Part shown: piece by piece, positions 36,001-39,000 of the stretch
Position numbering within the stretch: position 1 is the stretch's first letter
Layout of the letters: every line of letters starts with the position of its first letter
Assembly: GCA_003525075.1 (NCBI GenBank)
Contig: DQFO01000016.1
Location: forward strand, 17,167-81,166
DNA: 64,000 nt
Reading direction: 5' to 3'
Source of the DNA: Clostridiales bacterium
GTDB taxonomy: Bacteria > Bacillota > Clostridia > TANB77 > CAG-508
Made by a program: the position numbers

Positions 36001-39000
36001 GTAATTTTTGACCTAATCTGTTGAATAATTCCTATTAAAATATTTGTTATTATAATACCTAAAAATGTTAAATTTCTATATGAATGTGATGTGATAAGTA
36101 ATATAGTTAATATTAGGAAGATAAAATTAAAGTATGTAAATATATTTTTTCTTAATATTTTAAAAATACTTTCGTTTGTTTTTATTTTTACTTTATTTGA
36201 TTTTCCCTGTTTTATTTTTTCTTCTACTTCTTCATGTGTTAGACATTTTATTGATTCCATTATATTTCTTCCCTTCATTGTTACACAAATGTATTTCTCT
36301 CCAAGGATTTATTATAACACATTTTTTGGTAATTGTTTATTAATTTCTTCTTAATAACGCAAAAAAATAGATAATTGTAAAAAGTTCATCTGTTTTTCAT
36401 TAATTTTCTTTGTATAAAAAGCAATCTTTATCATGTGAATATATAACACCTATTGCTTGTAAATAAGAATATATAATTGTACTTCCTACAAATTTCATTC
36501 CTCTTTTCTGTAAGTCTTTAGATAACACATCTGATAATTGGTTTGTTGTTTTATCTGTTTCATATATAATTTGTTCTTGTGTAAATGTTTTTAAATAATT
36601 ATAAAATGTTCCATATTCTTGCTGAATTTTCTTAAAGATTTTACTATTATTTATAGTAGCATTTATTTTTAGTTTATTTCTTATTATCTTCTCATTTTGC
36701 AACAATTCTTGTATTTTATCTTCTTTATAATTACAAATTTTATCTATATTAAAATTATCAAATGCTTTTATAAAATCATCTCTTTTGTTTAATACACATT
36801 CCCATGATAAACCAGCTTGAAATGATTCTAATATTAACATTTCATATAAATATTGTTCATTAAAATTTGGCTTACACCATTCTTTATCATGATATTCTAT
36901 ATATTTTGGATTATTTAAATTACACCATCTACATCTTTTTATCATAATGCTATACCTTTTTTTGATACCATTCCGCAAATTTTTCCATAGCAGAATAAGA
37001 GCCATCTACATCTTTTCTGTTCTCTCTTTCTTTTTCATCCATTTCTGCTAATGTTTTCTCAAAACCTTCAGGTTTAAAAATATACCATAAGTCAGACCAT
37101 TTTTCTTTTCTATCTTTTCCTTGAATTTGTTTTGATAAGTTTCCTGGATGTTTTCCATAGAAATAATGTATTTCTTTTCCGTCATGATATGCTAAACATT
37201 CATTAAATGCACATTTTCTATTACTCTTATCTTCCATTAATTTTAAAATTCCTTGTATTCCTACTGTTTCTAATGAAAAATTTACAAACGCTCTTGGAAA
37301 TCCATTTAATTCATCAATTCTAAAATCTGTATCTAATGCTATACATGGTCTTTTTACTATTTCATACGCTTGTTTTACTTTTGCTGTTGCTATTTCCTTT
37401 ATATCATCACTTCTAGGCTCATCTAATTCATAGTTAAATGTATTGAATTTTAAATTTTTAAAATATTTTTCAGCTGATTTTATTTTCCCTGTATTATGTG
37501 TTACAAAAATAATTTCTTTTTCCATTTTTTTTCACTTCTCTTTTTACAAAACTTTTGTTCATATTTTATTATATATTTTTTTGTTTGTCAAGGAATTTTT
37601 TAATAAGTTTGACATTATATTTTTTATATGATATATAATATATTATTATTCGTTTGTAGCACTCATTAAAAAAATGGAGGTATATGTTATGAAACTCACT
37701 AATCCTGGCTTCGCAAGAGTACTTCACAAAAGATCAGACTATCATGAGCCTTTCTATCGTGTTCTTAAAGAAAAAGATATTTTTGAAAATCATTGCCATT
37801 GTTTTGATCATGGTGGTTATGGTTATACACAAGTACCTGTTCCCAAAACTGAACGTTGGATTGTTCATAAGGAAAATGAAGACAGTAAAAATAAAAAGTA
37901 AGTATCATACTATATAGCCAAAAGAAGCAAATATTACCTAAATTAAGGTTGTATTTGCTTCTTTTACATTTGTCAAACAATATTTTTACGAAAATTTGTT
38001 CTTTTTATATTGATTTGTTCTTAATTGTATGCTATACTAGTTCACATAGGAAATGATAATAAGCAGATGTGGTTTTGCCACCAATTATACGAATCATCGT
38101 AAGAGAGGTGGTGATGTTTATGGTTAAAGTAATATTATTTTTTATAATATCATTTATGTTATCTTTAACATTAAACGTTGCCTTAGCTGCAGTTCTTTAC
38201 AAGAACTGTGTTGATAAGCAACTACATAAATAAAAGAAATCTCACATCTGTAAATTTGGCGATTTAGATGTGAGTTTTTATATCTATTCGGCAAAACCAC
38301 GTTTGTGGATTTGTCATTTCCTATATTTATTATACTGAGTTTTTATTTTTTTGTCAATCCAAATTTTAATTATTTACAAACTTTGTTTATCATCTTCCAT
38401 ATTATATTTAAGCATATTCATATTTTTTTCTATTTGCCACAATACATATTATACTAACAACAATTGCCAATAATTCTGCAACTACAACAGATAACCATAT
38501 TCCATTTATTCCCCAGACTGCTAGTAATATTAAAATCATTGCAACTTGGAACAATAATGTTCTTAAGAATGATATAAGTGCTGAAATAAAACCATTATTT
38601 AAAGCTGTAAAGAATGATGATGTAAATATATTAAACCAACTTATAATATAAGATAATGAATATAATCTTATTGCATTAATAGTTATTTCCAATAATTCTT
38701 TATCATAGCTTACAAATATTTGTACAAGTTTTTATTATTGTAGATAATTCAAATTTTGTTTTTCCTAATTTTAACATTGTATCATTTTTTCTTGAAAAAT
38801 ATATTAATGGAATAATAGCTCCTACCGTTTGACTTGTAATTGTTGCTATTGCTGCACCTGCAACGCCTAATCTAAATACATATATAAATAGAAAATCTAA
38901 TACCATATTTGTAATTCCTGCTGCAATTGATATACCAAGCCCAAATCTAGGCTTTTCTGCTACAATCATAAATGACTGAAAACTATTTTGTAAAATAAAT

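Follow-up and report, generated by a model that had tools for sequence, protein, structure and literature searches.

Type I toxin-antitoxin (TA) systems are hard to find by homology. The Fst/Ldr systems are defined by convergent promoters, a bidirectional terminator, the direct repeats DRa/DRb and a 5' stem-loop over the Shine-Dalgarno sequence (SD), and their toxins carry a transmembrane (TM) helix, a conserved Trp, a charged tail and usually a PxxxG motif (PMC7472228). In Clostridia, the C. difficile modules are the only type I TA systems that have been validated experimentally (PMC6563280). Here, we analysed a stretch of 64,000 nucleotides (the window; Clostridiales bacterium, assembly GCA_003525075.1, contig DQFO01000016.1, positions 17,167 to 81,166 of the forward strand; guanine-plus-cytosine content ~25%) and describe an unannotated unit of ~350 bp at positions 38010-38360, bounded by two -35 boxes, which comprises a small membrane peptide gene and a convergent antisense RNA gene. 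On the sequence evidence presented below, we consider it probable that this locus is a chromosomal type I TA-like module of a previously undescribed family.

In its architecture the unit is closest to par (Fst / RNA II) of Enterococcus faecalis pAD1 and less close to the Bacillus systems with their long overlaps. As in par, convergent promoters face a shared bidirectional intrinsic terminator whose complementary stem-loops would be able to start RNA contact, an intramolecular 5' structure sequesters the SD, and the putative antitoxin is a short RNA read from the stronger promoter; the putative toxin likewise has ~30-40 amino acids (aa), a TM helix, a charged C-terminal tail and, at the membrane boundary, a conserved Trp. 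Unlike par, the unit has no DRa/DRb: its leader repeat is inverted, so that the two RNAs share sequence instead of pairing through it. Moreover, the 5' part of the antisense RNA has no significant complementarity to the translation-initiation region, the TM segment contains no P/D/S/TxxxG(C) motif, and the peptide matched no toxin in Pfam, NCBIfam or a set of PDB sequences that included 2KV5 and 4B19; Fst_toxin was absent at E <= 10 and no homology to PepA1 was found.

A preliminary description of the window had likened the unit to txpA/RatA, bsrG/SR4 and the C. difficile families. This holds for the general architecture, but no homology to txpA or bsrG was detected, and par/Fst is architecturally closer. 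The unit shares with txpA/RatA and bsrG/SR4 of Bacillus subtilis (PMC6563280 and common background) the convergent genes, an antitoxin whose sequence complements the toxin mRNA at its 3' end, a small TM toxin with a polar tail, and a structured mRNA with limited access to the SD. The overlap is ~75-120 nt in those systems and ~55 nt here, essentially the shared terminator; they reside in prophage or skin elements, whereas the unit lies beside housekeeping genes, and no sequence homology was detected. The C. difficile modules (CD2517.1-RCd8, CD0956.2-RCd10 and others; PMC5961336, PMC6563280, PMC7699646), which we compared by description, belong to the same host class, Clostridia, and have unannotated toxins of 34-53 aa with a hydrophobic N-terminus and a Lys-rich C-terminus, convergent overlapping antisense RNAs and several paralogues per genome. 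In contrast to the unit, which is found off phages and plasmids and has sigma-70-type consensus promoters, they are associated with prophages or lie next to CRISPR arrays (PMC6563280). The unit would behave as a 3'-overlapping type I TA system in the manner of txpA/RatA, bsrG/SR4 and par, but it cannot be filed in any of those families.

The elements of the unit are the following (ORF, open reading frame):

38010..38038, plus strand: peptide promoter, TTGATT (38010-38015), 17-nt spacer, TATACT (38033-38038)
38046..38283, plus strand: predicted peptide mRNA, ~238 nt, highly structured
38046..38079, plus strand: mRNA 5' leader, block 1 ATAGGAAATGA (38046-38056) and block 2 GTGGTTTTGCC (38069-38079)
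38077..38112, plus strand: SD-sequestering helix, anti-SD GCCACC (38077-38082) with SD GGTGGT (38107-38112), paired in the minimum-free-energy fold
38088-38092 / 38097-38101, plus strand: hairpin UACGA / UCGUA inside the SD-sequestering helix
38120..38233, plus strand: peptide ORF, 37 aa, MVKVILFFIISFMLSLTLNVALAAVLYKNCVDKQLHK, with one TM helix and a tail rich in K, D, Q and H
38237..38279, both strands: bidirectional intrinsic terminator, perfect 9-bp stem CTCACATCT (38241-38249) / AGATGTGAG (38266-38274)
38228..38324, minus strand: predicted antisense RNA, ~95 nt, consisting of a 5' single-stranded AUAGGAAAUGA, the hairpin CAAAUCCAC-AAAC-GUGGUUUUG (38313-38292) and the terminator
38329..38357, minus strand: antisense promoter, TTGACA (38357-38352), 17-nt spacer, TATAAT (38334-38329)

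The TTGATT-17-TATACT promoter, the 37-aa hydrophobic ORF, the terminator with its perfect 9-bp stem followed by TTTTT (38275-38279), and the TTGACA-17-TATAAT promoter on the opposite strand, which matches the consensus at 12/12 positions, had all been read in the preliminary description and were recovered at the same coordinates. The peptide promoter also carries an extended -10 (TG at 38030-38031, TGcTATACT), and transcription of the mRNA is predicted to start near A38046. A second in-frame ATG at 38114 would add MF to give a 39-aa peptide (MFM...). On the minus strand, positions 38240-38226 would supply a U-rich tail. A terminator scan overlooked the terminator because its strict loop has 16 nt; in folding, inner pairs reduce this loop to ~6 nt. 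The two RNAs would start almost identically, as had also been claimed: ATAGGAAATGA-N12/13-GTGGTTTTGCC occurs at 38046-38079 (plus) and 38324-38290 (minus), two matches in the window where 100 shuffles gave an expectation of 0. Perfect consensus promoters occur five times in the window against 0.23 expected. Since such promoters are rare there and all elements are kept in 78 distinct homologous units, a chance origin is excluded.

We then examined how widely the unit is distributed. A peptide-profile scan of one genome per species yielded 352 places confirmed by tblastn in these species-representative genomes, adding many further copies to the one first described. The best 80 of the 352 places come from 70 assemblies (counted by accession prefix), nearly all of them metagenome-assembled genomes (MAGs) of gut Clostridia; the records of these 80 are almost all labelled uncultured Clostridia or Clostridium sp., the hosts being human, rabbit, goat, sheep, deer and mouse, and some of the genomes hold up to four loci. 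A search with the unit profile (nhmmer) returned 99 matches, of which 81 were full-length. The comparative figures below refer to 78 distinct aligned units, and to 76 main-type units for the ORF. All together, these sequences make it likely that the unit belongs to a previously undescribed multi-copy type I TA-like family shared by 70 or more species of uncultured Clostridia of the gut; neither the peptide motif nor such a family was found described in the literature searched. The family numbers hundreds of loci, spread over at least 70 genomes at the species level, and occupies an abundant, uncultured, low-GC lineage of gut Clostridia (human, rabbit, ruminant, mouse).

Conservation spans the unit from -35 box to -35 box, and similarity fades outside, at unrelated chromosomal sites. 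Mean column conservation is highest in the leader blocks of each RNA (0.98-0.99), followed by the SD and start codon (0.96), the ORF (0.94-0.95) and the terminator (0.78-0.88), against 0.56-0.72 in the flanks. The locus of the window is nearly unchanged in six other strains, with Trp in place of Cys30 and no gene called there, in line with the lack of annotation noted in the preliminary description. Settings vary between copies, which lie near housekeeping genes such as rpmB, nth, rplM-rpsI, serS and dapB, and no neighbour gene or partner is conserved across the compared contexts. For the neighbouring Ham1-like protein, the index of the assembly collection lists 5252 blocks, and the contigs shown for it are human-gut or other metagenome assemblies plus one NCBI genome, up to 1.5 Mb long. 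Searching phage and plasmid collections with the unit (blastn) gave no match, and IMG/VR contained one match among 2.9 million contigs. This sole viral contig with a type A unit (types are defined below), L091 (IMGVR_UViG_3300045988_168928, 63 kb; unit at 2517-2619), is either a prophage copy or a misclassified chromosomal contig.

The peptide has the features of type I toxins: fewer than 60 aa, one predicted TM helix and a charged C-terminus. On the Kyte-Doolittle scale, residues 6-28 have an average hydropathy of 2.56 and the tail of -1.47. The ORF is intact in 76/76 main-type units, and the entropies of codon positions 1, 2 and 3 (7.55, 2.02 and 9.53) display the pattern of a translated hydrophobic peptide. 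In the family alignment, W32 is nearly invariant and is followed by V-D-K-Q-L-H-K; the window copy has Cys at this position (W30C relative to the family consensus). Polar S, T and N residues inside the TM segment are invariant, and the type A peptide contains neither Gly nor Pro. The RNA scaffold carries at least three types of hydrophobic peptide: type A, type B (MIEAVLLEIIYLLLFGLVVETIIVFALIILVIILSK, with relatives of 39-40 aa) and type C (MGIILFLIYAWGFSLTINVALLAIIYIILSNKE). In type B the spacing from SD to AUG is 8 nt, from which we infer that ATG 38120 (37 aa) is the favoured start in type A. Units also occur in arrays, such as three units in 1.5 kb (type A, type B, type A; L051, 1794-3264) and two type A units 3 kb apart (L007, 741-1079 and 3891-4239).

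With a 54-aa extended ORF carrying the Trp of the family as the query, 49 protein clusters were retrieved, none of them named and none with a Pfam domain, which leaves the family unannotated; an exact look-up of the 37-aa window peptide gave no record. An exhaustive HMMER search of 1.84 billion representatives produced 11 matches at E <= 0.001, all close relatives that align at >= 68% identity, except one 1171-aa protein without an aligned stretch. Because this search yields close relatives only, distant toxin relatives appear to be out of reach of sequence comparison. Weak matches in Pfam, NCBIfam and the PDB (DUF7299, DUF6535, an RND permease) were set aside as hydrophobic noise. Gene callers often miss the peptide ORF or extend it wrongly.

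The mRNA of the window folds at -66.4 kcal/mol (z = -5.35 against 200 shuffles). In the minimum-free-energy fold, CCACC in the leader pairs with the SD, as the preliminary description had proposed from the 5' untranslated region (UTR). Across the family alignment, 93.6% of cells are paired on the mRNA structure, compared with 37-48% when the partners are slid, and 17 pairs have changed on both sides, a number reached in 0/500 shuffles. These compensatory changes cluster in two places, with 7 pairs in the terminator and 3 in the hairpin of the UTR. The anti-SD:SD helix (98.5% paired for CCACC across units) and the helix between the leader and the end of the ORF are paired at 98.5-99.2% and show one-sided, G-U-compatible changes only; in type B units, CCUCC stands as anti-SD opposite the SD GGAGG, a compensatory switch from CCACC:GGUGG. 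All together, these data indicate that the mRNA is structured so as to restrain translation, presumably through sequestration of its SD. The terminator exists in three forms, CTCACATCT/AGATGTGAG, TTCACATCT/AGATGTGAA and an unrelated hairpin, AAACCATT/AATGGTTT. We also considered that the leader sequence AGAUGUGGUUUU might mimic the terminator 3' arm AGAUGUGAGUUUU and pair with the antisense RNA or with the terminator 5' arm; this idea was rejected, as the leader is unaltered in units that have the alternative AAACCATT terminator. In Rfam (E <= 10), the 37000-39500 region matched by chance only, to a snoRNA and, on the terminator of the neighbouring gene, to mir-982.

The antisense RNA folds into a 5' hairpin and the terminator (-21.5 kcal/mol, z = -4.52). 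RNAalifold recovered only the CCAC/GUGG helix from the antisense alignment because indels in the terminator loop misalign the stems, and explicit pair counts were used instead to assess its structure. The two promoters differ markedly in strength by sequence. Over the 78 units, the antisense promoter matches the consensus at 11.45/12 positions on average (TATAAT in 76/78, TTGAC(A/T) in 77/78) and has the form TTGAC(A/T)-17/18-TATAAT throughout; the peptide promoter averages 8.59/12, with the extended TG in 53/78, and exists in three alternative versions, all with proper hexamers and a 17-nt spacing. In each unit (78/78), it is the antisense promoter that scores higher. In a cofold, the two RNAs form a continuous duplex over ~38228-38283, including the stop codon and the terminator, at -144.2 kcal/mol compared with -87.9 for the two monomers. 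The ~95-nt antisense RNA overlapping the mRNA 3' end by ~55 nt, as foreseen in the preliminary description, thus holds as a sequence prediction: a putative cis-encoded antisense RNA with its own promoter and complementarity to the toxin mRNA. Inspection of indels in two alignments found no conserved reading frame and no properly spaced SD in this RNA.

If the antisense RNA is an antitoxin, it would be expected to outlive the peptide gene, and not the reverse. A metagenome scan that took the antisense leader and -10 box as its anchor, and was thus independent of the peptide, gave at least 118 stretches. Among the 107 that are not cut by contig ends, 82 have an ORF preceded by an SD and 25 (~20 distinct loci) have none; in these 25/107, separate deletions or point mutations took the SD, the start or the TM region, while the antisense gene and its promoter stay. 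At two loci (L097, L150) an ATAAGCA microhomology has joined the leader to the ORF end. Conversely, in genome loci anchored on the peptide, the antisense leader and -10 box were found within 170 nt of 74/74 intact peptide ORFs. The absence of orphan peptide genes (0/74) against many orphan antisense genes (25/107) supports the dependency that would be expected of a type I TA system. The type I TA reading put forward in the preliminary description is thus supported by the conserved architecture, the coding constraint, the covariation, the promoter asymmetry and this orphan asymmetry.

The window itself holds a degenerate second unit, which was found with the leader blocks:

~15700-15945, antisense gene on the plus strand, peptide gene on the minus strand: degenerate second unit

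Its antisense half is ~82% identical to the 38010-38360 unit, with a plus-strand promoter (TTGACT 15700-15705, 18-nt spacer, TATAAT 15724-15729), an RNA predicted from ~15734, and terminator stems at 15783-15791 / 15806-15814. In the peptide half (minus strand), the promoter and leader (15904-15894) are kept and the last 14 codons (...AVLYKNWVDKQLHK*) are left; an internal deletion has removed the anti-SD, the SD, the start codon and about the first 25 codons. The same remnant was seen in another sample (L130), and L085 is a further example of a remnant. At 15750-15769 the antisense hairpin arm of this copy is mutated from GUGG to GUGU and its U-run has grown to 6; the orphan antitoxin may itself be decaying. 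A near-match to the leader at 62169-62179 was discarded as a third unit, as it sits by chance within a coding gene.

We propose the following mechanism, in which transcription of both RNAs, toxicity of the peptide, degradation or translational block as the mode of action, and the biological role are predictions from sequence. A weak sigma-70-type promoter would produce an mRNA of ~238 nt encoding a single-pass membrane peptide of 37-39 aa. This mRNA would be translationally closed as it is made: GCCACC would pair with the SD, the start-codon region would be paired within the ORF, and AUGUGGUU of the leader would pair with AACUACAU just upstream of the stop codon. From the other side, a near-consensus convergent promoter would produce the ~95-nt antisense RNA, ending at the same bidirectional terminator. 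Because the terminator is shared, the two RNAs would be perfectly complementary over ~55 nt, comprising the stop codon and the terminator hairpin. By analogy to RatA/txpA, SR4/bsrG and par, pairing would probably begin at the complementary terminator loops and spread to a duplex, which would be degraded by an RNase III-type activity and/or hold the mRNA closed. The peptide would then be made only when the level of the antisense RNA drops.

Could the peptide instead be a non-toxic small membrane protein, for example a transporter regulator or a stress peptide, that is tuned by a cis-antisense RNA and forms no addiction module? The chromosomal position beside housekeeping genes and off mobile elements would suit such a function, and the invariant S, T and N of the TM segment could reflect a specific interaction. 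Nevertheless, we regard this as unlikely. No neighbour or partner is conserved across contexts, several paralogues occur per genome, including the tandem arrays of L051 and L007, and peptide cassettes are swapped on the same RNA scaffold. Moreover, the ORF has repeatedly been lost with the antisense gene kept, the reverse never being seen, and to sequester the SD while driving the antisense RNA from a much stronger promoter is the logic by which harmful products are controlled.

The identity of the two leaders raises a different alternative, a MITE-like (miniature inverted-repeat transposable element) non-autonomous mobile element in which a transposase would recognise the leader blocks as terminal inverted repeats, the promoters and ORF being incidental. 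Indeed, the leader blocks form an inverted repeat, copies of the unit are numerous and found in many different contexts, and the U-run in GUGG(U)nGCC varies in step between the two arms, as if one protein reads both. Its length is equal (4/4, 3/3 or 2/2) in the mRNA and antisense leaders in 161/177 strand-instances, a count in which each unit figures on both strands and which comprises three type-level classes only; because of this parallel change, the two leaders appear to be under a common constraint. However, the repeats are not terminal, since the -10 and -35 hexamers lie outside them at a fixed spacing and are kept in 78/78 units. The sequence between the blocks differs between the two RNAs and this difference is conserved, the internal helices covary, and phage and plasmid collections contain essentially no copy of the unit. 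The preliminary description had reasoned that a high-copy MITE would be indicated if other copies lacked the ORF and promoters; on the contrary, the other copies keep both, and all main-type copies have an intact ORF with its coding signature. We therefore consider a mobile element very improbable. Still harder to credit is that the convergent RNA is no antitoxin and that the leaders are operators or RNA sites of a regulator shared by two independent small genes with a common terminator: the leaders are indeed more conserved (0.98-0.99) than the overlap (0.78-0.88) and change in parallel, but the antisense RNA lacks both a conserved frame and an SD at proper spacing, the complementarity of the overlap is kept automatically, even upon replacement of the terminator, and the genomic dependency asymmetry ties both genes functionally.

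Several observations weigh against a type I TA module. No curated type I toxin family was detected at E <= 10 in Pfam, NCBIfam or PDB sequences with either the peptide or the family profile. The overlap is short (~55 nt) and consists mostly of the terminator hairpin, and the non-overlapping 5' 41 nt of the antisense RNA have no target in the mRNA beyond shuffled controls, 47% of which equal it. A few units (L046, L064, L070, L089) have an ORF without a leader. The window copy may be attenuated, because W30C alters the nearly invariant Trp. Finally, a simple 3'-overlap model leaves the two identical 5' leaders, the most conserved parts of the unit, unexplained.

Why the toxin and antitoxin RNAs would carry the same 5' leader is thus the mechanistic question that the family raises. 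Tentatively, the identical leaders (AUAGGAAAUGA...GUGG(U)nGCC) could be a dedicated recognition module, and not a by-product of duplication. One possibility is that the two RNAs are handled by one cellular factor via this 5' tag; the factor could be an RNase, an RNA-binding protein or the 30S subunit. Another possibility is that the antitoxin arm CAAAUCCAC, self-paired with GUGGUUUUG, switches to the identical sequence of the mRNA leader beside the anti-SD, which would make a two-site antitoxin from inverted instead of direct repeats. Such a CAAAUCCAC:GUGGUUUUG contact is kept in types A and B and not clearly in type C, in which trans pairing of the antisense 5' arm is poor. When the whole antisense RNA was paired with the 5' UTR, 34% of shuffles paired as well; as pairing is no better than in shuffled controls, a par-type second contact via direct repeats is absent. 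If the leaders are a recognition module, then together with the swappable peptide cassettes (A, B, C) and terminators they would constitute a modular type I TA platform of a kind that, to our knowledge, has not been described. The promoters, covarying helices, cassette swaps and many decay intermediates of the family form an unusually clean data set that could serve to trace the evolution of type I TA modules, and its peptides are candidate membrane-active toxins.

Both leaders also hold AGGAAAUGA, in which an SD-like AGGA stands 1 nt before an AUG that opens frames of 24 and 17 codons (38053-38127, plus, and 38315-38262, minus). An upstream ORF was rejected here: the frame relative to the peptide varies between units and the AGGA is only 1 nt from the AUG. 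These short frames are probably untranslated, and the AGGAAAUGA motif could serve as a tag at the 5' end that binds ribosomes or an RNase.

The ORFs without the usual promoter and leader (L070 ~2850-3120, P0013, P0049, L046, L064, L089) are intact, with a junction to unrelated sequence that falls at the SD or shortly upstream of it; some of them are in frame with an upstream coding region. Either they are real rearrangements that removed the anti-SD, in which case the peptide could be tolerated without it, or they are MAG assembly chimeras at the repeat. The repeats are likely assembly breakpoints in MAGs.

Beside the antisense promoter lies a MATE-family transporter gene (38408-39667, minus strand), which is broken into ORFs of 94, 275 and 54 aa in the window. 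Among other strains (L001-L006, ~880-2140), L005 has the same gene intact as a 522-aa cytidylate-kinase-like/MatE fusion, while in L002, L003, L004 and L006 its 3' end is deleted to varying extents, ending ~45 bp outside the unit; the unit may mark a rearrangement hotspot. Upstream, the 37674-37965 region contains a conserved ORF of 70-75 aa (MEVYVMKLTNPGFARV...HCHCFDHGGYGY...) with no Pfam match, followed by a 23-bp near-perfect hairpin at 37920-37965, the site of the weak mir-982 mis-score in Rfam. This hairpin is probably the terminator of the 70-75-aa gene and would shield the unit from upstream transcription. The four other perfect TTGACA-N16-18-TATAAT promoters of the window, which are likely strong, lie at 25222-25250 (plus), 40602-40630 (minus), 48369-48397 (minus) and 52293-52321 (minus).

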